Positions 3,269 to 28,390 of a stretch of DNA of 64,000 nucleotides are shown in pieces. The stretch's first letter is position 1. Every line of letters begins with the position of its first letter. Made by a program: the position numbers and the translations under genes. The notes beneath the pieces were generated by a model that saw only the letters and a program-made list of their open reading frames with translations, was not told the DNA's origin and searched no databases. The DNA is taken from positions 2,666,001 to 2,730,000 of the forward strand of contig OX597816.1 of NCBI GenBank assembly GCA_951406725.2, in the 5' to 3' direction. The stretch comes from Octopus vulgaris. Its lineage: Eukaryota.

Positions 3269-3850
3269 GTGAGGCCAGTTTCCTATTTATTCCTCATGTT
3301 GTTATTCAGATGGCAGTGAAATAGTTTTCTTGGTACCAATAATCTCAATAAACTGATTATCTTTTCCAAAATTGACATAAAATATGGAAGCAGCTAATTG
3401 AAACCTCAGTCTATCTTTTAGCGTTTTTATAATTTATTCCCAATAAAATGAAGATCAATTTGATTTTGGAGTGATTTGAACTTAGGATGGATATTGCTTT
3501 GGTCTGTTCTTTTGTAATCTACATTGACACCTGGCTTCCAAATGCTTATAACAGTTTGAATTTACAGCCTCTGAGTCTCATTGCTAATTTCCAGAAATCT
3601 CTGCAGCTTTCCTTTTATTTTGATTAACATTAAAAAAAAGTGATGTTCCACCTCAGGTCATTTTTGTTTTTTAAAGAAGAGCAATGGTGGAGAGGCTTGT
3701 TGGCTGCAAACACTGGATTTGTTGTTAAGTATTCATTTTTGTATGAGCCACAGATCTCGTTTTGAGCTCAGATTGTACCTCGTCTTCAGACTAATTATAA
3801 CACATCAGTTGAATGCCAAATAAGTAATCATTATCAATCATTGTCTAAAC

Positions 3851-4155
3851 CAGTGGTTCCTAACCTGTGGTCCATAGACCCCTGGTGGTCTGCAAAAGTA
3901 GATTTGAGGATCTGTGAACTAAATTCGAAGGGCATCCAGCTGTAGAAACACTGCCAGATCAGACTGGGTCTGGTGCAGCCTTCTGGCTTCCCAGACCCCA
4001 GTTGCACCGTCCAACCCATGCCATCATGGAAAGCGGACGCTAAACGATGATGACGATGATGATGATATGAAATAGGATAAGCATATTAAAAGGGGTCCTT
4101 GGGAGAACTCATTTAAATAAAGGGTTCTTGGTAGTGAAAAAGTTGCGACCCACCA
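3851..4155. mobile_element. hAT-like MITE with a SINE fragment inserted
   Basis: ends CAGTGGTTCCTAACCT ... AGTTGCGACCCACCA; 8-bp flanking duplication GTCTAAAC/GTCCAAAC. Confidence 0.6.
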
Positions 4156-4425
4156 GTCCAAACGCTTTACTCCACAGTCCTTCACAAATGCAGATCTTAC
4201 TACAATTCAATTTTATCCCTGATCAAGTCACATGTCTCTGCTCCAATTTGTTTGACGGAACGAAAGCAAGTCTCATTTGTTCCATTGAGTTTGAGGACAG
4301 AAGCAAAGACTTCCAGCAATAAAAACTGTTTCTCTTACAAATAGCCCCACCCTCTTCCACACGTATGTAAATAGTAAAGGAAAATAAATCTCAATACGCC
4401 TCCCCCCACCAACTCACACGCTGCC

Positions 4426-4451
4426 TATCAATCTATCTATCTATCTATCTG

Positions 4452-4518
<67 letters not shown>

Positions 4519-4520
4519 GC

Positions 4521-4552
<32 letters not shown>

Positions 4553-4679
4553 TTGTCTATCTGTCTGTCTGTCTGTCTATCTATCTATTTGTCTATCTGT
4601 CTATCTGTCTATCTATCTATCTATCTGTCCGTCTATCTGTCTATCTGTCTATCTACCTATCTGTCTACCTATCTATCTG

Positions 4680-4738
<59 letters not shown>

Positions 4739-4739
4739 G

Positions 4740-4817
<78 letters not shown>

Positions 4818-4827
4818 CGTCTATCTG

Positions 4828-4893
<66 letters not shown>

Positions 4894-4919
4894 CGTCTAT
4901 CTGTCTATCTATCTATTTG

Positions 4920-4974
<55 letters not shown>

Positions 4975-5000
4975 GTCTATCTGTCTGTCTCTCTCTATAT
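4426..5000. repeat. (TCTA)n/(TCTG)n microsatellite ending ~30 nt before the exon B acceptor
   Basis: direct reading. Confidence 0.97.
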
Positions 5001-5028
5001 ATATCCCTATTTTTACTTCTTGAAACAG

Positions 5029-5125
5029 GATTTACCATACAGTTATTATATATGATCCCTATGATGACCCACCACACTTGGACATTCCTGCGATGTCACC
5101 TGTGCCTACAAAAGAGCAACTTGAA
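5029..5125 (+). CDS. PPIL4: PPIL4 exon B
   Basis: acag|G...GAA|gtaaaa; (R)[32 protein letters not shown], similar to PPIL4 INHTVILDDPFDDP; phase consistent with neighbouring exons. Confidence 0.93.
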
Positions 5126-6247
5126 GTAAAAGATAATTTTCTGATGTCTCTTCTTTTTTTTTCTGTTTTCTTTTGTTTTTTTTAAAATTGTTTTATAATA
5201 TCTTAACAATATTTGCAACGAGTGAGTCTTAATTAGTGGCAATTAGTGCTAAATCCTGCATAAAACCATTGTTTTGAGAAAATCTATCACCAAGTTGGTA
5301 CGGCACCAGATGACAGCCAAGAGGATAAAAATTTGTATCTTATCACTGACATTGCTTCGTATTTGAGGGGCCAAAACCTGTAATCTTCCACACCCCTGCC
5401 TATCTGGCTGCCTAAGCTGCATGGAAATATGGCAGAGCAGAGTGATATAACCTCAGCAGAAGCAATGGCCATACTTTGAAATTAAATGGTGAAGCATTGA
5501 CTTGAAGTGTCCAGTTCAGTTGTTGCCTAAGAAATATGTGTTTGTTAGGATGATACTTCAGACATCTGCCAATTTGTTTCTCAACTTTGTAATGCTGTAG
5601 AAAGCAGAAATAAATATTGGTCCAATGAAACTGGGATGCCTCTGGAGTTTGGAAAATCTCAGTAAAATGCCTCTCCATCTCTGCCAATCAACATGTGACA
5701 TTGTGCAACATTGGAGACCTCTAACCATAGCTGGATCCCTGAGTCTTGCCACTGTGAAGTAAAATTTGAACTCCAGGCAGAAACACACTTCAGGCATCCC
5801 ATCTTATGCCCCGACAATTTTGCAAATCACCGTATTAATCCCGAAAAGATGAAAGACGAAGGTGAACTTGGTGGTATTTGATCTCATGATGTAGAGAGCT
5901 GAAACAGGTACCACTGGGCATTCTGGCCTTGAATCAATATTTAGAACTTATAATTTAGAATTATGAGAGAGAGAGAGAGAGAGTCATGCTCAAACAAACC
6001 TTTTAATTATAAAAACATATCCATTTGTCATTTGGTTAAAAAAATATGTACGATATATAAATTGAGCATATTTAATTAAAAATAAAAGTACATTTTGTTG
6101 AGTAACAAATACAATTTTGTTTATTATATATTTGGTAAAATTAATTGTTATCTATAGTGATGTTTAATTAAGCCATGATAATATAAATTGCGAAAGTTAC
6201 ATTGTGTTTGGAAATAATTTTTAATGCCATAAAACTCAAATTTGTAG

Positions 6248-6364
6248 AGTGACCGTATTGGTGACACTGAAGAACTTGATGACACTAAAGGTATGACTGA
6301 AGAAGAAATGAGAGAGCTTATGGAACAAAAAGAAGCCAAATCCAATGCCCAGATTCTAGAAATG
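6248..6364 (+). CDS. PPIL4: PPIL4 exon C
   Basis: gtag|AGT...ATG|gtaagt; SDRIGDTEELDDTKGMTEEEMRELMEQKEAKSNAQILEM; 117 nt, phase 0. Confidence 0.94.
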
Positions 6365-8320: not shown

Positions 8321-9400
8321 CCCTTTCGTTACCAAACCGCCCAAAGCCGCCCGAAAAAAATTTTAGTTAATGTGACCAAACCGCCCAAAGCCGCCCGAAT
8401 TTACCTATTCATATTTAAATGAGAATATCAGAGCAAATCTCTTTAGTACATTCGTGAAAACACGTATTATACTTCGTAAACAGTTCAACTACAGTTTTGT
8501 ACAATAATCGAAGTGTAATTTTAATTCCGTGAATTTTGAGAGATTTTTTTCCGAAATTTGTTCCTATTGTGTTTTCAAAATTTGTAATTCTGACAAAAAA
8601 TGGATACGAATTTCATTATATCAAGCAGCGAGTCAGAATTCGAAGGATTTTCTACTGAAGACCTTCATAAATCTAACTCTATGACTGAAAAAAAAAGCAC
8701 ATGGTATTTGATAACGAATCTGATGTTTCATTTTCCGAAAGTGAAAACAGTGAATTCGAGAGCTCCGACAGCGATAAAGAAAACGAATTGGCACCTGAAT
8801 GGAGTGAAAATTTAAAAACTGTTTCTTTCGGTGATTTTTCTGAAGAAACTGGACCAAGCCACAGACTTTCCCAGAGGAGTAAAGCCTTAGACTATTTCTT
8901 TTTACTTTTTCGAATGAGCCTATTTGAAATCATTACGGCGAAAACGAACAGTTACGCTAAACGTAAACAAAGCGAAAGAAAGGATAGTTTGTTATTTCCC
9001 ATAACCTTAAATGAAATTAAGACTATTTTGCCGTAAATATTATTATGGGTATCAGAAAGTTACCCAGAATAACAAATTCTATCGTAAAATTTTGTTGTAT
9101 ACCCAATTGAATATTAGCTAATAACCCATTTTCTATAGCGATGTTTGAACAAAATTTTAATTTTATATTTTGTTGAATTTACCTGTATCTACCTGCAATT
9201 AGAGTCACTTTGTGACAAAAATTATAGTATAGAATTAGTTGCGAATATTTCATTAAATTATCTTCCAAAAATCAGATTAATATATTGATAAATAAAAGTT
9301 ATAGTTGTTTAATGAAACCAGACTAAATTTATGATTATGTTAGAAATTAATTGAAACACATAAGGGGTGTATTTTGGTCAGAAATATAGTAACAAAAGGG
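8321..9400 (+). mobile_element. Non-autonomous piggyBac-family element in a PPIL4 intron
   Basis: TTAA|CCCTTTCGTTAC ... GTAACAAAAGGG|TTAA; subterminal direct repeat ACCAAACCGCCCAAAGCCGCCCGAA x2; frameshifted N-terminal transposase remnant (SSSESEFEGF..., LDYFFLLF..TNSYA..ITLNEIK). Confidence 0.85.
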
Positions 9401-14432: not shown

Positions 14433-14553
14433 GTGTGAGATGTATTCTTAATAAGATTACAATTTGTTGGATTATTAATTTTATCTTTGACTGTGAAAAC
14501 AGATTTTTGGTTTTTCCCTTTAAAATTTTCTTTTCCATTTTATTGCTTTCCAG

Positions 14554-14635
14554 GGAAAGGTGTGGAAATGTTGCCCAGCAAACCAGACCCACCACAACCC
14601 CAATATGTCTTGAAAAACAATTCCAGAAAAGAAGA
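14554..14635 (+). CDS. PPIL4: PPIL4 exon G
   Basis: long pyrimidine tract then ccag|GG; (G)KGVEMLPSKPDPPQPQYVLKNNSRKE(E); ends at GA|GTATCCTTT; phases fit exons F and H. Confidence 0.85.
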
Positions 14636-15703
14636 GTATCCTTTCAAAACAATTCTGACCCTAATCTTGACCATTAATTCTTTTTTTTAGTTTGCTTCTC
14701 AAACACTGCGTTTGATTTACTCTTTGTTCTTGTCTAAACCAGTAGCGTTTGGAAAGCCTTGGGGACAACTTTGGGTCCTCTTTCTGAAGTTTATGGCAGT
14801 TTGGTATTTGTGCCAAAGTGTCTTCAAGAACACACACACACACACACACTGCCCCCCTCTCTCTATTTTTCAGTTCCCAATCCACCTGCAAGGCTTTGCT
14901 TGGCCCGAGGCTATAGTAGAAGACACTTGCCCAAGGTTCCACGCAGTGGGACTGAACCTGGATCCCCATTGCTGGGAAGCAACTATACTTGCACCCAAGT
15001 GAATGGTATAATTGACCAAACCAGTTCCTCTCCCCTGGGCTCTTCCATTCATGGTTTTAGCTGCAATGCTGGCTTCATCATAATTTTGACCACTACACCA
15101 TGTTTGGCTGCTGGTCACTGCTTCTGCAGATTATAGTTAGCCCAAGGTCATTTCTCAATGAATAGAACTTATGATCAAAGATATTCCAACCATGACCATC
15201 CTGTCTTATTTCCAGATGTAAATCCAATGTACCTTCCCATTCTAAAGAAGGTAGAGTATAATCTGAGTGAGACTCAGCTGCTATTTCTTGCAATCTTGAA
15301 TGAATACATAGAACAGCAGTTCTCACCTGTGGATCCCAGGGCCTCATGTGGCCCATAAACATCTTTCCAGCGGCCCCTGATAGTTTTTCCTCTTGAAATA
15401 TAAGAAATTCTTCTTTAGTTGACTTGGGTTTTCCTGTTTTTGGTGTGTGTCCCCTAAAACAAAATCCAGGTTTTGGATCTGAATGGGGACGGCTGATGTA
15501 GAAGCTCAACCGTTGGCTTCTGCTCCATGTTACGTGAGAACATGGGTCACCAAAGACAAAGTAATACCATTCTGTTACCATTCTCTTCATGAATAACTCT
15601 ATTCCAAAGAAATCCTCATTCTCTCCTTACACAACTTGGTTCTTCACCCCAAGGGGTTGGGTCTTTGTCACTCGTTATCGTTTCTCTTTTTCCTTAATAT
15701 CAG
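14636..15703 (+). other. U12-type (minor spliceosome) GT-AG intron of PPIL4
   Basis: 5' end GTATCCTTT matches the U12 donor consensus RTATCCTTT; TTTTCCTTAAT branch-site consensus at ~15688-15698 just before CAG at 15701-15703; joining keeps the reading frame. Confidence 0.8.
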
Positions 15704-15887
15704 AAAAAAATATGAACTTGTCCTGGAGGATGATGACCTTGATGCGGAACTTGAAGCAGCTCAGGTGAAGAAGGACAAGAAGAAGAAGAAGAAGAAGAAG
15801 AAAAAGCACAAGAGGAAACACAAAAAACAGAAGAAGCAGGATGAGAGCGACAGCGATCAGTCGGCATCCAGTGAGAAAGCGTGGAAG
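15704..15887 (+). CDS. PPIL4: PPIL4 exon H (Lys-rich segment)
   Basis: KKYELVLEDDDLDAELEAAQVKKDKKKKKKKKKKHKRKHKKQKKQDESDSDQSASSEKAWK, ending AAG|gtaggg (phase 0); KYELVL resembles PPIL4 KYDLIL. Confidence 0.82.
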
Positions 15888-18800
15888 GTAGGGAAGGAAA
15901 TGACAAGGCTACTCTCTGACCCAGGGGAATTTGGGAGTGGGGGGTCAAACCTTGGCAGCCAGTGAGAAAGCGTGGAAGGTAGGGAAGGAAATGACAAGGC
16001 TACTCTCTGACCCAGGGGGATTTGGGAGTGGGGGGGGTCAAACCTTGGCAGCCAGTGAGAAAGCGTGGAAGGTAGGGAAGGAAATCACAAGGCTACTCTC
16101 TGACCCAGGGGGATTTGGGAGTGGGGGTCAAACCTTGGCAGCCAGTGAGAAAGCGTGGAAGGTAGGGAAGGAAATGACAAGGCTACTCTCTGACCCAGGG
16201 GGATTTGGGAGTGGGGGGTCAAACCTTGGCATCCAGTGAGAAAGCGTGGAAGGTAGGGAAGGAAATGACAAGGCTACTCTCTGACCCAGGGGGATTTGGG
16301 AGTGGGTGGGGGGTCAAACCTTGGCAGCCAGTGAGAAAGCGTGGAAGGTAGGGAAGGAAATGACAAGGCTACTCTCTGACCCAGGGGGATTTGGGAGTGG
16401 GGGGGGGGTCAAACCTTGGCAGCCAGTGAGAAAGCGTGGAAGGTAGGGAAGGAAATCACAAGGCTACTCTCTGACCCAGGGGGATTTGGGAGTGGGGGTC
16501 AAACCTTGGCAGCCAGTGAGAAAGCGTGGAAGGTAGGGAAGGAAATGACAAGGCTACTCTCTGACCCAGGGGGATTTGGGAGTGGGGGGGTCAAACCTTG
16601 GCATCCAGTGAGAAAGCGTGGAAGGTAGGGAAGGAAATGACAAGGCTACTCTCTGACCCAGGGGGATTTGGGAGTGGGGGGTCAAACCTTGGCATCCAGT
16701 GAGAAAGCGTGGAAGGTAGGGAAGGAAATGACAAGGCTACTCTCTGACCCAGGGGGATTTGGGAGTGGGGGGTCAAACCTTGGCATCCAGTGAGAAAGCG
16801 TGGAAGGTAGGGAAGGAAATGACAAGGCTACTCTCTGACCCAGGGGAATTTGGGAGTGGGGGGGTCAAACCTTGGCAGCCAGTGAGAAAGCGTGGAAGGT
16901 AGGGAAGGAAATGACAAGGCTACTCTCTGACCCAGGGGAATTTGGGAGTGGGGGGTCAAACCTTGGCAGCCAGTGAGAAAGCGTGGAAGGTAGGGAAGGA
17001 AATGACAAGGCTACTCTCTGACCCAGGGGAATTTGGGAGTGGGGGGTCAAACCTTGGCATCCAGTGAGAAAGCGTGGAAGGTAGGGAAGGAAATCACAAG
17101 GCTACTCTCTGACCCAGGGGAATTTGGGAGTGGGGGGTCAAACCTTGGCAGCCAGTGAGAAAGCGTGGAAGGTAGGGAAGGAAATGACAAGGCTACTCTC
17201 TGACCCAGGGGAATTTGGGAGTGGGGGTCAAACCTTGGCAGCCAGTGAGAAAGCGTGGAAGGTAGGGAAGGAAATGACAAGGCTACTCTCTGACCCAGGG
17301 GAATTTGGGAGTGGGGGTCAAACCTTGGCAGCCAGTGAGAAAGCGTGGAAGGTAGGGAAGGAAATCACAAGGCTACTCTCTGACCCAGGGGAATTTGGGA
17401 GTGGGGGGTCAAACCTTGGCAGCCAGTGAGAAAGCGTGGAAGGTAGGGAAGGAAATCACAAGGCTACTCTCTGACCCAGGGGAATTTGGGAGTGGGGGGT
17501 CAAACCTTGGCAGCCAGTGAGAAAGCGTGGAAGGTAGGGAAGGAAATGACAAGGCTACTCTCTGACCCAGGGGAATTTGGGAGTGGGGTGTCAAACCTTG
17601 GCATCCAGTGAGAAAGCGTGGAAGGTAGGGAAGGAAATCACAAGGCTACTCTCTGACCCAGGGGGATTTGGGAGTGGGGGGTCAAACCTTGGCAGCCAGT
17701 GAGAAAGCGTGGAAGGTAGTGAAGGAAATGACAAGGCTACTCTCTGACCCAGGGGAATTTGGGAGTGGGGGTCAAACCTTGGCAGCCAGTGAGAAAGCGT
17801 GGAAGGTAGGGAAGGAAATCACAAGGCTACTCTCTGACCCAGGGGGATTTGGGAGTGGGGGGTCAAACCTTGGCAGCCAGTGAGAAAGCGTGGAAGGTAG
17901 GGAAGGAAATGACAAGGCTACTCTCTGACCCCGGGGAATTTGGGAGTGGGGGGTCAAACCTTGGCAGCCAGTGAGAAAGCGTGGAAGGTAGGGAAGGAAA
18001 TCACAAGGCTACTCTCTGACCCAGGGGAATTTGGGAGTGGGGGGTCAAACCTTGGCATTCAGTGAGAAAGCGTGGAAGGTAGGGAAGGAAATGACAAGGC
18101 TACTCTCTGACCCAGGGGGATTTGGGAGTGGGGGTCAAACCTTGGCAGCCAGTGAGAAAGCGTGGAAGGTAGGGAAGGAAATGACAAGGCTACTCTCTGA
18201 CCCAGGGGAATTTGGGAGTGGGGGTCAAACCTTGGCAGCCAGTGAGAAAGCGTGGAAGGTAGGGAAGGAAATCACAAGGCTACTCTCTGACCCAGGGGGA
18301 TTTGGGAGTGGGGTGTCAAACCTTGGCAGCCAGTGAGAAAGCGTGGAAGGTAGGGAAGGAAATGACAAGGCTACTCTCTGACCCAGGGGAATTTGGGAGT
18401 GGGGGTCAAACCTTGGCAGCCAGTGAGAAAGCGTGGAAGGTAGGGAAGGAAATCACAAGGCTACTCTCTGACCCAGGGGGATTTGGGAGTGGGGGGTCAA
18501 ACCTTGGCAGCCAGTGAGAAAGCGTGGAAGGTAGGGAAGGAAATGACAAGGCTACTCTCTGACCCAGGGGGATTTGGGAGTGGGGGGTCAAACCTTGGCA
18601 TCCAGTGAGAAAGCGTGGAAGGTAGGGAAGGAAATGACAAGGCTACTCTCTGACCCAGGGGGATTTGGGAGTGGGGGGTCAAACCTCGGCATCCAGTGAG
18701 AAAGCGTGGAAGGTAGGGAAGGAAATCACAAGGCTACTCTCTGACCCAGGGGAATTTGGGAGTGGGGGTCAAACCTTGGCAGCCAGTGAGAAAGCGTGGA

Positions 18801-19596
18801 AGGTAGGGAAGGAAATGACAAGGCTACTCTCTGACCCAGGGGAATTTGGGAGTGGGGGTCAAACCTTGGCATCCAGTGAGAAAGCGTGGAAGGTAGGGAA
18901 GGAAATGACAAGGCTACTCTCTGACCCAGGGGGATTTGGGAGTGGGGGGTCAAACCTCGGCATCCAGTGAGAAAGCGTGGAAGGTAGGGAAGGAAATGAC
19001 AAGGCTACTCTCTGACCCAGGGGAATTTGGGAGTGGGGGTCAAACCTTGGCATCCAGTGAGAAAGCGTGGAAGGTAGGGAAGGAAATCACAAGGCTACTC
19101 TCTGACCCAGGGGGATTTGGGAGTGGGGGTCAAACCTTGGCAGCCAGTGAGAAAGCGTGGAAGGTAGGGAAGGAAATCACAAGGCTACTCTCTGACCCAG
19201 GGGGATTTGGGAGTGGGGGTCAAACCTTGGCAGCCAGTGAGAAAGCGTGGAAGGTAGGGATGGAAATCACAAGGCTACTCTCTGACCCAGGGGGATTTGG
19301 GAGTGGGGGGTCAAACCTTGGCAGCCAGTGAGAAAGCGTGGAAGGTAGGGAAGGAAATCACAAGGCTACTCTCTGACCCAGGGGGATTTGGGAGTGGGGG
19401 GTCAAACCTTGGCAGCCAGTGAGAAAGCGTGGAAGGTAGGGAAGGAAATCACAAGGCTACTCTCTGACCCAGGGGAATTTGGGAGTGGGGGGGTCAAACC
19501 TCGGCAGCCAGTGAGAAAGCGTGGAAGGTAGGGAAGGAAATCACAAGGCTACTCTCTGACCCAGGGGGATTTGGGAGTGGGGGGGGGTCAAACCTC
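15863..19596 (+). repeat. Minisatellite, ~41 copies of a 90-95 bp unit spanning the exon H 5' splice site
   Basis: unit GGCA(G/T)CCAGTGAGAAAGCGTGGAAG|GTAGGGAAGGAAAT(G/C)ACAAGGCTACTCTCTGACCCAGGGG(A/G)ATTTGGGAGT(G)nTCAAACCT(T/C); 41 copies counted by eye. Confidence 0.97.
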
Positions 19597-19834
19597 AGCC
19601 TCTCTGGCTTATTTAACCCTTCACCGAGGTTCCTGAGCAGAAAATATTAAATAGTTGCACACACAGCACAAGAATCACTAAAAAACTCAGGAGAATAACA
19701 ATAATAGGCCTTTCTCTCAACTACCATATTTTTTCACCCAAATCGCTACTTTTCTCATCATTTTCACCAGGTTGATTGTGTGAATCATTCTCATTGTCTG
19801 TGTAAGAGGGAAGTCTTTGTCAGAGGAATACATT

Positions 19835-19997
19835 TTTGCCAACATAACATGGCAGTCCTGGTTTAAGACGAATGTTGCTGTAATTTAGCCCCAGGAGACA
19901 CAGATTGTGTCGTATAGCCAGCTGGAGACGATTTCTCCTGGGGCTAAATTACAGCAACATTCGTCCTAAACCAGGACTGCTATGTTATGTTGGCAAA
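19835..19997. repeat. 64-bp inverted repeat with 35-nt spacer (MITE-like hairpin) in a PPIL4 intron
   Basis: arms 19835-19898 and 19934-19997, two mismatches. Confidence 0.9.
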
Positions 19998-21002
19998 TAA
20001 TCTTTGCTCCAAAGTACTGTTGCTGAATATCTCTTGTGAGATTTTTAAAAAATAGTAATTTTCTGAAGAATAAATGTCGTAACTATAAAAGAGTCTAAGC
20101 ATTGCTCTTTTATCAGACAAAATGCTGGGTTTGTTCCAGGCTTGTTTCATTCTGAAAATCCGTTTTTCTCAATTAAAAACAAAAGTCAATTATGGCTCGT
20201 GGGTGGGCACCATTAACAATGAGTCATATCCACACTTGTCTCCAAAGCTACAACGTGATTGGTTGTTTGGTTTGAGAATTTCATCTTCTTTTCCTACATG
20301 TGTGGTTCATTGCTTCTTAAACAGGAATCTGGCTGAGATTATGACGTTTAGTCTATTCTTGCTATGCTGAGAACTTGGAGCTACAGGGTTAAGATTTTAG
20401 TTATGTTACTTGTGTGTATGTGTGTGTGTGTGTGTGCGTGCGTGAGTGTATGTGTGTAGGTGTCATCATCTTCATCATTGTTTGACGTCCTCTTTCCATG
20501 CTGACATGGTTCAGACAGTTCGACTGAGGACTAGTGAGCCAGAAGGCTGCACCAGGCTCCAATCTGATCTGGCAAGGTTTCTACAGCTGGATGCCCTTCC
20601 TAATGCCAACCACTCCAATGACAGCACTCACTACACTCTCGGAGTGGTTGACGTTAGTAAGGGCATCCAGCTGTAGAAACCTTGCCAGATCAGATTGGAG
20701 CCTGGTGCAGCCTTCTGGCTCACCAGTCTTCAGTCAAACCGTCCAACTCATGCCAGCATGGAAAGTGGACGTTAAATGATGACGATGATTGGTTAAGGTC
20801 GTGGGGGTGTTTTATGTCTGTGTATGGTGTGTAATGTATGAAAATTTAAATTATATTCCAGCAGATCTGTCAAAGCACTGACTGCAGTTACAGGTAATCA
20901 CAGCAAACTAAAGGTGGAAAAAGATGGTAGTAGCTTCTCTGTTTTTTCTTTTTTTTTTAATTTTTGCTTATGTCATTTCAAACTTTTATTTATTCTTTAT
21001 AG

Positions 21003-21338
21003 AAAGCTTCCAAATCAAAACATGAAGATAAATCCAGCGCATCTGTTATCCATCTTGAGAAACGAAGGAAATTGTCATCAGCGTCTCCTGAACCCATCAA
21101 AGGAAAATCTCACGCCAGCAGTGAAGAAAATTCTAGAGAAATTAGTCGTAGCCGTTCTCCAATTTCTCGTTCACAGAATCGTGCCAATCGCAGTGATCGT
21201 AGAAGCTGTTCGCCTGATTCGAAGAGGCGCTCACCTGATCTGAAACGGGCCAGAGATTCTGACAGAGTTTCTAAAGACCGTTCTCGAGAAAAGGATCGCA
21301 AAAGTAGCAAATCTGATGTGAGACATTCAAAAAAATAA
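21003..21338 (+). CDS. PPIL4: PPIL4 terminal exon I (Arg/Ser-rich tail)
   Basis: strong T-rich tract then tatag|AAA; KASKSKHEDKSS...SRSRSPISRSQNRANRSDRRSCSPDSKRRSPDLKRARDSDR...KK-TAA; phase 0 matches the exon H donor. Confidence 0.85.
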   Translation, partial: KASKSKHEDKSSASVIHLEKRRKLSSASPEPIKGKSHASSEENSREISRSRSPISRSQNRANRSDRRSCSPDSKRRSPDLKRARDSDRVSKDRSREKDRKSSKSDVRHSKK

Positions 21339-22288: not shown

Positions 22289-22618
22289 TCATTGTTCGAC
22301 TGTGGTTGAGACAATGGAATTTACCATGCTATGCCAGACCTCACGGTCCATCATGGCATTACGGAGGTCCTGTTGCTGGATGCCTGTATCCCTGGAGATT
22401 ACATCAGGGTAGGAGAATGTGCGCCCTCTGGTATCGCGAGCAGATGGCTTCCAGAGGAGAAGAGTAGAAATTACCTCGTTTTCAGCTCTACAACAATGTC
22501 CAACAAACTGGAATCTTCTACCTTTCACAAGAGATGATACAGGTGGTAATTTCCCATATATTTGTACTTTGGTTGGATGACGCTTCCACGAGAGATTTTG
22601 AGCTCTCATAAGGAGGCG
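22289..22618 (-). mobile_element. 3' end of a LINE (RTE-like), 5'-truncated
   Basis: ORF ...NLSWKRHPTKVQIYGKLPPVSSLVKGRRFQFVGHCCRAENEVISTLLLWKP..RGR..AMMDREVW; short (TGA)n tail. Confidence 0.7.
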
Positions 22619-23319
22619 AGTTTTCTATTCTGCCATGGGTTGTAGAGTTTGACAGGATCTGACATGTCCAGGAACTGCATTCTGCTCCACCTGTCTGTAT
22701 TGGTGGGGAATCTATGGCTGAAGGACAAATTTAAGGGAATTTATTTCAAAACCCACGATAATCCTCATACAAAGGGAGTTTCTATGATTATTGTTGCTGT
22801 TATTTGTCCAAGGTATACAGATTAGGTGGCCAATTGACAGAGTTGTTTGAGTGTCAGAGGAATTGTTTTGAATTTCTGCACTTTGAGTTCAAATCCTGTT
22901 GAGGTCAAACTTTATCTTTTATCCTTCCTGGGGTGATAGAGAATTAGTTTTTCACTGGAGTCAGTTCTTTGTCTCTGCATAAGAAATCAACTCTTGTCAA
23001 ACCTGCTGAGAGCAATGGACTCTGCCAGGCGTAAATCTACTCAACACACACGTCACGGGGCCACTGCTGCCCTTCAGCTCCATCAGATGCGGATGCGACT
23101 CTCTTCTATGTTCCAGCCCAAAGGCTGTGGCCATGCTGGGGTACCATCATTATTCTTTTATTCTTTTACTTGTTTCAGTCAATTGACTGTGGCCATGCTG
23201 GAGCACTGCCTTTTAGTTGAACAAATCGATCCCAGGACTTATTCTTTTGCCGAACCATTATAAATACACCAACATTGGTTGTCAAGCGATGGTAGGAGGA
23301 CAAATACAGACACCCAAAT

Positions 23320-25559: not shown

Positions 25560-26000
25560 ATATTCTTCCTGCCTTTTTATCATCACTTCTCTCTTTTGTG
25601 TCAAGACATATTCTTGCCTTTCACGAATCCTGGCTTGTTCCTCCTCCATTTATTTCTCTCTCTCCTCACAACATCACCCAGGTGCCTTCCTCGCTCTGCA
25701 CATTCATTCTCTTCTTCCTCCACTCAAACATCTTCATTCTCTGCCTTCTCCTCGCTCTCCTTTCCCACCTGCTCAGTCTCCATTCCATCATCCTCTCAGA
25801 GAAATCTCCGCTGTCTCTCTCTCACACTATCCATCAACTCTCTCTTCACTTTCATCTTCTTCATCACTTTCACATTCCTCATCCTCTCTACCCAAGAGAT
25901 TCTAAGCATTTTTCTATAAAACCACATTCCTGCAGCTTTGAGTCTCTTCTCCATGACTTTGCTTATCGTCCAAGATTCACTCACATTAAATATTTTACTC
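25560..26000 (-). mobile_element. LINE 3' fragment (RTE-like)
   Basis: SESWTISKVMEKRLKAAGMWFYRKMLRISWVERMRNVKV...RERQRRFL. Confidence 0.7.
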
Positions 26001-26027
26001 AAAGGAGTATTTCTGGAGAGCCAAATT

Positions 26028-26682
26028 TAGTTAGTTAGTTAGTTAATTTTTTGGCTCAAAAAGCAAAAAGCAAGGCCATATAGGGGGACATGGAGTTATG
26101 TACAGGGTGGTGTTCATGTAAAGAGTTCAGGCCACTTGTGGTCAAGGGAGACTTTGAACTGAGTGGTCGTCGGCATCTTCACCATCTCGTCCGGCAGCTT
26201 ATTCTATGGATCCGCAACCCAGACAGAGAAAGCCCCTCTCCTTTGATTGAGATGAAATCGTCGCAGATAGAGCTTTTCGGAATGACCCCTGGAGCAGGAG
26301 TGAAGAACAGCTCTTTCGAGAGGTTACACTTTCCGCTTATGATGTTGTGAGCAAGAATGAGATCTCCACGGCATCGTCGTTTTTCTAGAGAATAAAGGTC
26401 GAGCGTCTTCAGCCTTTCTTCATAAGACAAATTCTTGAGACCAAGAACCATGCGGGTAGCCAGCTTCTGGACTCTTTCGAGATGCTGTATGTCTTTGAGG
26501 AGATAAGGAGAAGAGACTTGAATCCCGTACTCCAATATGGGTCTCGCCAGCGTGACATAGAGCAGTAGGAATATGGCTGCTGTGAGCATTCCGAATGACC
26601 GTCGAATCAAGAACAGAACTCCGCGTGCTTTGTTGGCAGCATGGACGCACTGGGCCGAAGGCGAAAAGGAGGAATCCACCAA
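26028..26682 (-). mobile_element. CR1-clade LINE 3' fragment with (AACT)n tail
   Basis: ARPILEYG..SPY..KDIQHLERVQKLATRMVLGLKNLSYEERLKTLDLYSLEKRRCRGDLI. Confidence 0.85.
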
Positions 26683-28390
26683 GATTGAACTACAAACTGA
26701 ACTTCCCCTCCCAACAACTGGTTTCTTTTTACAGTCAGATGGACTGAGGCATTTACAGTCTTTGCTAAAAACATACAACTGCTCTCCCCACTTTAAAAAA
26801 AAAAAGCAAGCATAGATTTGCTATATTTTGCAGCAGATACCAAATCAAGAGAATTGACTCTGTTTCCTGATTTTTTTGTTTTTTTTTGTAACTCCCCAAA
26901 TTCTTTTAAAGCATATTTTGTGGGAGGAGACCTAGATTGGCCCCAGTATTTAGCTGGTATCAGCCCTAAGAAAATTTGAAGTGAGAACGTCAAAGAGAAT
27001 AACCAAATTCCATAATGTTGCCATCACCTATGTCAGTGTTTAGAAATTAAGTGAAACTGGATCTGATGTTTCAAATTGAAGAGATCCATCATCATCACCA
27101 TCATTTAACATCCACTTTCCATGCGAGCATGGGTTGGATGGTGTAATGAGCTGGTAAAGCTGGGAACTGAACCCTTGTCTGCTTTGGCATGGTTTCTATA
27201 GCTGGATGTCCTTCTCCCTAACAACAGCCACTTTACAGAAATGGGGACTGAGTGCTTTCTCCATGACACCAGCACCAGTTCTCAACACTCATGCTTTTTA
27301 CGTAGTAATATCATCATCATCATCATCATCGTTTAATGTCCATTTTCCATGCTAGCATGGGTTGGACGGTTCAACTGGGGTCTGGGAAGTCAGGAGGTTG
27401 CGCCAGGCTCCAGTCTGATCTGGCAGTGTTTCTACAGCTGGATGCCCTTCCTAACGCCAACCACTCTGTGAGTGAAGTAGGTGCATTTTACATGCAGCCG
27501 GCACAAGTGCCAGGGGAGGCTGGCAGCAGCCACGATTGGTCGGTGCTTTTTACGTGCCACTGGCACAGAAGCCAGTCAAGGTGGTGCTGGCATCGGCCAC
27601 GTTCGGATGGTGCTTTTTACATGCCACTGGCACAGGTATCACAACTACAATTTCCATTCTCTAATAATTATTTCTACTACACACTACAAGGCCTGAAACT
27701 TTGAGGGAGGGGGCTGGTCTATTACATTGACTCTGGTATTTGACTGGTCCCTATTTTATTTTCCCCCAAGAGGATAAAAAGCTAAATTGATGTTGGCAAC
27801 ATTTGAACTCAAAGCATGCAAAGCAGTTTGTCTCGTCTGGTTAATGATTCTATGAGCTCAGCGCCTTCTTTGTCTCAAAGCAAACTGATGAGATGCCAGG
27901 CCAGCAGAGACGTTGGCACATCGGGAAAATGTTTTGTGCCATTCCGGTTGTTTTTAGGTTTTGAGTTCAAATTCTGTTGAGATTGACTTGGCCTTTCATC
28001 CTTTTAGGGTTGATGAAATTAAGTACCAGTTGCATACTGGGGTCGATGTAATCGACTTCCTCTCCCCAAAACTTGCTGGTCTTGCGTCAAAATTTGAAAC
28101 CAATATAATAATAACCGATACAAAGGTTGGTTGGTTGATTTCTCCATTCTTTACGGTGGAGAGAGGGAGAGTGACACAGAGAGAGCTAACATAAATGGTA
28201 CTGGACGAGTGCATATACTAGGCTTGGTGCTATGCAATGAGTAAAAGATCATTACACATATAATGAAAAAAAAAAAGACTCACAAACATAGATGAGGGGG
28301 AGTAAATGTCAGAGTAATGGAAGAAGTTTGAAGAACATCTTAAGAATGAATACATGTACATTGTGTTTTTCTTGTATTTGATTTTATTAA

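Follow-up and report, generated by a model that had tools for sequence, protein, structure and literature searches.

PPIL4 and a minisatellite across one of its exon–intron boundaries

We analyzed a 64,000-nt stretch of the Octopus vulgaris genome (assembly GCA_951406725.2, contig OX597816.1, positions 2,666,001 to 2,730,000 of the forward strand; hereafter the window), which carries nine exons of the gene PPIL4 and a minisatellite built from 41 copies of one of its exon–intron boundaries. An earlier note on this DNA had named the gene as PPIL4, and its exons and domains bear this out. Based on tblastn, the nine exons match O. vulgaris PPIL4 (CAI9718934.1) with 100% identity over the exonic parts. 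The annotated O. vulgaris protein (P0001) contains a cyclophilin domain (PF00160, E 4.2e-31) and an RNA recognition motif (RRM; PF00076, E 5.5e-17) and thus has the plan of cyclophilin, RRM and basic, Arg/Ser (RS)-rich tail, with the start of the cyclophilin domain encoded upstream of the window. Searching with the last exon returned two protein clusters, both of them Octopus PPIL4 (210 candidates). Annotated PPIL4 proteins number five and come from O. vulgaris, O. sinensis and O. bimaculoides.

The features of interest all lie on the forward strand. Exon G, an upstream coding exon (14554–14635), was placed by tblastn, by its acceptor and by a joint from 14635 to 15704 in two sequencing runs, X2 and X3. 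Exon H (15704–15887, 184 nt, lysine-rich) is 100% identical to P0001 residues 345–405 and ends at the authentic donor, donor 1, as contigs of the same two runs also indicate. The last coding exon (21003–21338), 100% identical to residues 406–516, encodes a 111-aa Arg/Ser-rich tail and the stop. The intron between these two exons is 5115 nt long, of which 3640 nt are array; without the 40 extra units it would measure 1475 nt. Its unique remainder (19597–21002, delimited by sequence measurement) ends in a T-rich acceptor.

The minisatellite (15863–19596) consists of 41 units of 90–95 bp, each comprising the last 25 nt of the exon, the donor and about 66 nt of G-rich intron. Tandem Repeats Finder reports a period of 91, 40.9 copies, 96% matches and a score of 6830 over 15863–19584, and the last unit extends to 19596. 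With the exon-end motif as anchor, 41 donor copies are obtained, with GT from 15888 to 19528. The 40 spacings between donors are 91 nt (21 cases), 90 nt (13), 92 nt (3), 95 nt (2) and 93 nt (1), with length differences arising in one G-run, and the units comprise 23 distinct sequences. Unit 1 (15863–15953, 91 nt) is the sole unit whose first 25 nt are coding. It reads TCC (Ser399) where 28 of the 41 units have GCC (Ala). The 40 distal pseudo-donors run from donor 2 (GT at 15979) to donor 41 (19528).

The earlier note had described this layout from the letters, and much of its description holds. The unit does start 25 nt inside exon H (15863–15887), with the authentic donor at 15887|15888, and we judge its proposal of an origin by tandem duplication of the exon–intron boundary to be right. 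The features expected of a boundary-spanning minisatellite are present, namely a head-to-tail array of units in the size range of tens to about 160 bp, the real boundary in the terminal unit and a reiterated splice signal. Of the claim that AAG|GTAGGG is repeated 41 times, the count of donors stands, but only 40 read GTAGGG, as unit 21 (17716) has a G>T change at donor +5 and reads GTAGTG. The reported TC microhomology at the array edges exists, but it spans just 2 nt and recurs at only 3 of the 40 internal junctions (TT at 37). All 13 of the 90-nt units are stop-free in the frame of exon H, as claimed, and so is the single 93-nt unit. This is unsurprising, because 27% of shuffles of the unit's 65 intronic bases are stop-free.

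Within the window there is no other full copy of the unit, the best match outside the array being 17 nt long (E 0.049); a search of metagenome contigs with the 25-nt unit pattern gave 0 matches, which is uninformative about octopus. Each of the first five units, the ones in which they were counted, contains four or five G-runs. G4Hunter scores peak at 1.96 in unit 1 and exceed 1.5 in 9% of array windows, compared with 0.07% elsewhere, from which we infer no function. At lag 2, units are weakly more alike than in shuffled order (p 0.028, with p of at least 0.10 at the remaining 6 of 7 lags, all uncorrected). We do not claim a higher-order structure.

Whether such an array is genuine can be judged from reads. 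Half or more of 38 words sampled from 15600–16100 occur in 15 runs from 5 studies; runs X16–X24, with a word share of 0.05 or less, were left out. Assembled contigs of four runs from four studies (X1 and X12, DNA; X2 and X3, RNA-type) were aligned to 14480–15978, which covers exon G, exon H, unit 1 and donor 2. In X1, summed contig depth is 961–1489 on unit bins compared with 15–26 on unique flank contigs, and in X12 it is 3468–6276 on unit bins, with holes over the unique flanks and hence no copy-number baseline. Summed depth is inflated by overlaps and gives no copy number, so that these values show a multi-copy unit and not a count of 41. A multi-copy unit is present in the contigs of both DNA runs; the outcome that the earlier note had named as refuting was absence of the array from raw reads. 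Contig 8 of X1 passes from exon H into unit 1 and stops 30 nt past the unit start, as would be expected at the onset of a repeat. Substitutions among units recur at four fixed sites, and all 6 site pairs show all four combinations, a mosaic of the kind that exchange between units would leave, unlike random read error. An assembly artefact, or a strongly inflated copy number, could draw on the G-run lengths of 5 to 10, as homopolymer errors would give, and on the fact that no listed piece confirms the count of 41. We regard it as highly improbable in view of the unit's very high summed depth in both DNA runs, which stem from different studies, and of the contig end at the repeat start, the mosaic sites and the word-rich runs. 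At six flank sites X1 departs from the window sequence. This evidence is limited in that one of the DNA runs may have served as source of the assembly. We conclude that the array is real.

The mosaic extends into the coding exon end. Position 5 of the unit, which is 15867 in exon H, carries T in 13 units, unit 1 among them, and G in the other 28. Read in the exon frame, T encodes Ser399, the residue of O. vulgaris and O. sinensis, and G encodes Ala, the residue of O. bimaculoides; a cuttlefish cluster has Val at this residue, and Val codons likewise start with G. These patterns suggest exchange between the intronic copies and the coding exon end. On the simplest reading of the letters, the array would have begun while the exon read Ala, and the T state would later have spread between exon end and copies, although a parallel change inside the array may account for the same pattern.

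Donor use at exon H and the products of distal donors

The joint from 14635 to 15704, which removes a 1068-nt GT..AG intron, is found in both RNA-type runs (depths 367.3 in X2 and 67.4 in X3; their RNA labels were guessed) and in neither DNA-type run, which indicates that X2 and X3 hold spliced RNA. At the other end of exon H, contig 24 of X2 (487 nt, depth 417.5) spans 15704–15887 and continues for 306 letters off the aligned stretch, and X3 contig 31 (427 nt, depth 68.2) covers 15818–15887 and continues for 312. Since 15888–15978 is part of the reference and both contigs carry sequence found only in exon H, they leave at donor 1. Their depths are near those of the contigs with the upstream junction. 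All five annotated Octopus PPIL4 proteins, from three species, read SEKAWK-KASKSK, as results from joining donor 1 (15887) to the acceptor at 21003; being automatic gene models, they are supporting and not decisive. The earlier note was right to expect that splicing has to select the most upstream of 41 nearly identical donors, and in X2 and in X3 the main exon H contig leaves at donor 1.

No joint inside the unit occurs among the 8 joints listed for X1, X12, X2 and X3, and no distal-donor product is seen in contigs of the two RNA-type runs, in which rare forms drop out. X3 contig 32 matches 15872–15978 exactly, at depth 12.6, and its 121 nt equal 91 + 30. It appears to be a closed loop of one unit, assembled from 31-letter words, and hence head-to-tail intronic sequence. 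We conclude that the authentic, most upstream donor dominates the mature RNA; exclusivity is beyond the reach of contigs. Donor 1 itself is ordinary, with a predicted U1 duplex of -9.7 kcal/mol that ranks third among the gene's 7 major-type donors in the window. The alternative donor CCA|GTGAGA at 15871 was rejected as the main site, as its U1 pairing is weak (-4.6 vs -9.7) and the contigs continue to 15887. Across units, no special conservation of the distal donors is seen; the unit's first 69 nt contain four singleton changes, a small number, and two of these fall at donor +5 and +8.

What a distal donor would yield can be read from the frame. Read-through, or splicing from any distal donor, meets TGA at 15963–15965, a stop that the earlier note had already linked to loss of the tail. 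The product would gain 25 new residues and lack the 111-aa tail. The distance from this stop to donor 2 is 13 nt, and to donor 3 it is 106 nt. Junction-dependent nonsense-mediated decay (NMD) follows a 50–55-nt rule. The suggestion that such products are NMD substrates therefore survives for donors 3–41, predicted targets with the stop at least 106 nt before the junction, but not for donor 2, which is predicted to escape because its stop is only 13 nt from the junction; both predictions hold provided that the last coding exon has no further intron downstream. Of the 40 donor-to-donor units, 14 keep the frame and are free of stops, units 2 and 3 included, and the longest such run is three units (35–37). 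A weak acceptor within the unit, CCCAG at intron +37, would define with the next donor pseudo-exons of 53–58 nt. In 21 of 40 units this piece is 54 nt, in frame and stop-free, with the AG intact in 20. Over -20 to -4 the pseudo-acceptor has a T fraction of 0.24 and a pyrimidine fraction of 0.59, compared with T of 0.29–0.76 in nine true acceptors. A recursive-splicing ratchet point combines a pyrimidine tract with YAG directly before GT. No 3' splice site of this kind precedes the unit GT, where AAG is found with a pyrimidine fraction of 0.29 and a T fraction of 0.12.

The intron before exon H and other elements in the window

The intron upstream of exon H (14636–15703, forward strand, 1068 nt, GT-AG) carries U12-type signals, as found by a motif scan together with the RNA joint. 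Its 5' end reads GTATCCTTT, and a branch-like TTCCTTAAT lies at 15690–15698. We take the minor-intron 5' consensus to be RTATCCTT and the branch consensus to be TTCCTTAAC-like. The 5' motif is one of only 2 on the forward strand of the 64 kb, and its junction is spliced in X2 and X3. The branch-like element matches the consensus at 8 of 9 positions, but its adenosines lie at -8/-7, a distance short for this class. These motifs make the intron a candidate for splicing by the minor spliceosome. In the two O. bimaculoides models exon G is missing and exon H instead reaches back into this intron, which is likely a mis-annotation. Exon definition beside minor introns needs bridging between both spliceosomes (PMC8034651).

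Several smaller observations concern the PPIL4 exons. An AAG repeat at 15767–15817 in exon H codes for a lysine run. Contig 24 of X2 shows 3 gaps over exon H, and the proteins of O. sinensis and O. bimaculoides are one lysine shorter, making this run a likely coding length polymorphism. Two AG acceptors lie 4 nt apart at 21001–21006 (giving exon starts at 21003 and 21007); the second is in frame with the weak exonic donor at 15871, and no evidence for its use was found. The donor GAA|GTAAAA at 5126 is weak (U1 duplex -3.3 kcal/mol) and is used in all annotated Octopus models.

The window is otherwise rich in repeats. An acidic 115-aa reading frame (8689–9036) lies in a PPIL4 intron, and with the sequence that follows it (8600–9100) resembles a remnant of a piggyBac-type transposon. 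Reading frames on the minus strand at 22289–22624, 25796–26026 and 26179–26820 resemble the C-terminal portions of LINE reverse-transcriptase ORFs. Dispersed SINE-like repeats of high copy number, often (CAT)n-ended, occur at 14889–14962, 15130–15229 and many more places, with summed depth in the DNA runs in the millions. Long microsatellites are abundant, for example (CTAT)145 at 4425–5005. An inverted repeat-like element of about 115 nt, recognized by eye, lies at 19865–19980 in the unique part of the intron after exon H and could be a small MITE.

Donor choice in the array and comparison with known systems

We consider it probable that the locus holds a 41-copy boundary minisatellite of which the first donor is used and the 40 extras are likely silent, the array being removed with the intron and likely neutral. 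Such an array would have arisen when a 91-bp segment across the boundary was duplicated, for which the 2-nt edge microhomology is a weak sign, and would then have expanded and been shuffled by unequal exchange or conversion between units. The upstream-most donor would be selected first through oriented scanning, as shown for human F7, together with exon definition. Exon definition disfavors very long exons and would favor donor 1, since the length of exon H rises from 184 nt at donor 1 to 275 nt at donor 2 and 3824 nt at donor 41. G-runs between the donors may further disfavor distal sites. In mammals, a silencer situated between two competing sites represses the intron-proximal site, and many such elements are GGG-rich (PMC2095810, reporting its ref. 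32). A predicted fold pairs the unit tail with the next donor, a partner that donor 1 lacks; this would mask the distal sites, and such masking is a possible contributor. Rare slips to donor 2 would yield a short protein that lacks the RS tail, from a transcript predicted to escape NMD, and slips to donors 3–41 would give NMD substrates.

Several points weigh against this reading. Contigs drop rare variants and do not quantify, so that a few percent of distal use is compatible with them, and the evidence on donors comes from only 4 of the 15 word-rich runs. The letters after 15887 in contigs 24 and 31 are assigned to the exon at 21003 by way of the annotated proteins. The evidence for scanning and for G-runs is mammalian. 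Under two folding settings, 37 of the 40 distal donors have lower predicted accessibility than donor 1, but under a third only 20 of 40 do. Finally, CBS and the interferon-inducible gene 6-16 use the next two pseudo-sites (PMC1557585).

The last of these points would also favor a regulated leak, in which array or G-run length sets the use of distal donors and thereby tunes the dose of PPIL4 as an elongation and splicing factor, donor 2 giving a tail-less protein and donors 3–41 feeding NMD. The distal donors are intact, with GTAGGG in 39 of 40. The ratio of unit depth between X12 and X1 is 3.6–4.2x compared with 1.6–2.5x at dispersed-repeat bins, a weak hint of length variation, as summed depth gives no copy number. 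We take the worm nuclear cyclophilin SIG-7 to be the orthologue of PPIL4. SIG-7 is needed for elongation and co-transcriptional splicing (PMC4991786), and by analogy regulation through the array is possible. In the human ABCA7 gene, greater length of an intronic variable number tandem repeat (VNTR) goes with reduced expression and with skipping of the exon that follows, but use of the second donor there is about 2% and independent of VNTR size (PMC5954066). Skipping of that type has no obvious counterpart in PPIL4, where the next exon is the last coding one. As contigs of the two RNA-type runs show no distal-donor product and the distal donors are not specially conserved, we regard a regulated leak as unlikely. 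The earlier note's idea that copy number or G-run length tunes productive versus NMD-bound PPIL4 finds no support, since the main contigs of the two RNA-type runs and all five annotated proteins point to donor 1. More doubtful still is a joint reading in which the minor acceptor and the ladder of 41 donors form a heritable autoregulatory rheostat whose copies also flip residue 399 between Ala and Ser. If this were true, slow minor splicing or fast elongation would cause slips to distal donors, with donor 2 giving an NMD-escaping PPIL4 without its RS tail and donors 3–41 feeding NMD.

Two further readings would make the units coding. The CCCAG acceptor and the next donor could frame an 18-codon cassette in the 91-nt units, or AAG|GT could act as a ratchet; the in-frame, stop-free 54-nt pieces would allow the former, and recruitment of this kind is proposed in the mirage model of intron gain (PMC3087553). 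However, the joint from 15887 to 15925 is missing among the 8 joints listed, the insert is in no annotated protein, the AG is lost in one unit, the pseudo-acceptor is T-poor and the AAG before GT is poor in pyrimidines. A cassette or recursive use is thus very improbable. We give still less weight to a coding VNTR, raised in the earlier note for a first unit of 90 nt, in which alleles with a first unit of 90 or 93 nt would encode 30–31-aa repeats through distal donors. The 14 units that are in frame and stop-free, units 2 and 3 among them, would suit it, but it requires distal donor use, which is not seen. Unit 1 is 91 nt, X3 has an exact match of the 91-nt type over 15872–15978, the longest in-frame run is three units, and freedom from stops is common in shuffles.

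The earlier note had treated the arrangement as unusual. A literature search, with most subscription journals and supplements outside its reach, found nothing on Octopus PPIL4 or, by title among the matches listed, on an octopus intronic minisatellite at this locus, although tables of genome papers or minor-intron databases may include the intron or the array; the arrangement belongs to a described class that includes F7 intron 7 (IVS7), CBS, ABCA7 and the amphioxus mirages. For the 37-bp VNTR of human F7 IVS7, only the most upstream of 5–9 identical donors is used (Borensztajn et al. 2006, PMC1557585). As in PPIL4, the first monomer spans the boundary and the donor is reiterated. The two differ in scale and host, as the F7 unit has 4 exonic nt and 5–9 copies of 37 bp, and the octopus unit 25 exonic nt and 41 copies of about 91 bp in a mollusc. 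The same source lists the layout for CBS IVS13 (31 bp, 15–20 copies), for 6-16 intron 2 (25 pseudo-sites), for LMNB2 (100 bp, 10–15 copies) and for PDGF intron 4 (81 bp, 16–18 copies) (PMC1557585). LMNB2 and PDGF resemble PPIL4 in unit length and in using only the authentic donor. CBS, written c.1444_1467+7(16_21) (PMC2630376), has 24 exonic nt in its unit, close to the 25 of PPIL4, whose copy number is about twice as high; the use of the next two pseudo-sites in CBS and 6-16 is not seen in PPIL4.

In the ABCA7 intron 18 VNTR (De Roeck et al. 2018, PMC5954066), donor 2 leads to a frameshift and a premature stop, as it would in PPIL4. The ABCA7 unit begins at the donor, with 25 bp, no exonic part and 12–427 copies, and its length effects on expression and exon skipping are results for ABCA7 and not for PPIL4. 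If length-dependent leakage did occur in PPIL4, it would make this a repeat-tuned splicing-factor gene in cephalopods. As it stands, the octopus array suggests that the rule of the first donor holds with 40 competitors outside vertebrates, and it could serve as a natural reporter of donor choice beside a minor-type intron. The Ala/Ser mosaic may be a small case of intronic copies sharing sequence with a coding exon end; in human paralogs, repeats at exon–intron boundaries can remodel gene structure (PMC2812944).

The invertebrate precedent is in amphioxus, where mirages, tandem duplications of boundaries in Adh3 and the globins BflGb6 and BflGb9, leave regular splicing undisturbed (Ebner et al. 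2010, PMC3087553) and show concerted evolution. The globin mirages comprise 2–6 copies, and length instability is demonstrated in amphioxus, whereas PPIL4 has 41 copies and instability is only hinted at. The PPIL4 array is thus a large mollusc example of an already described class of repeats.

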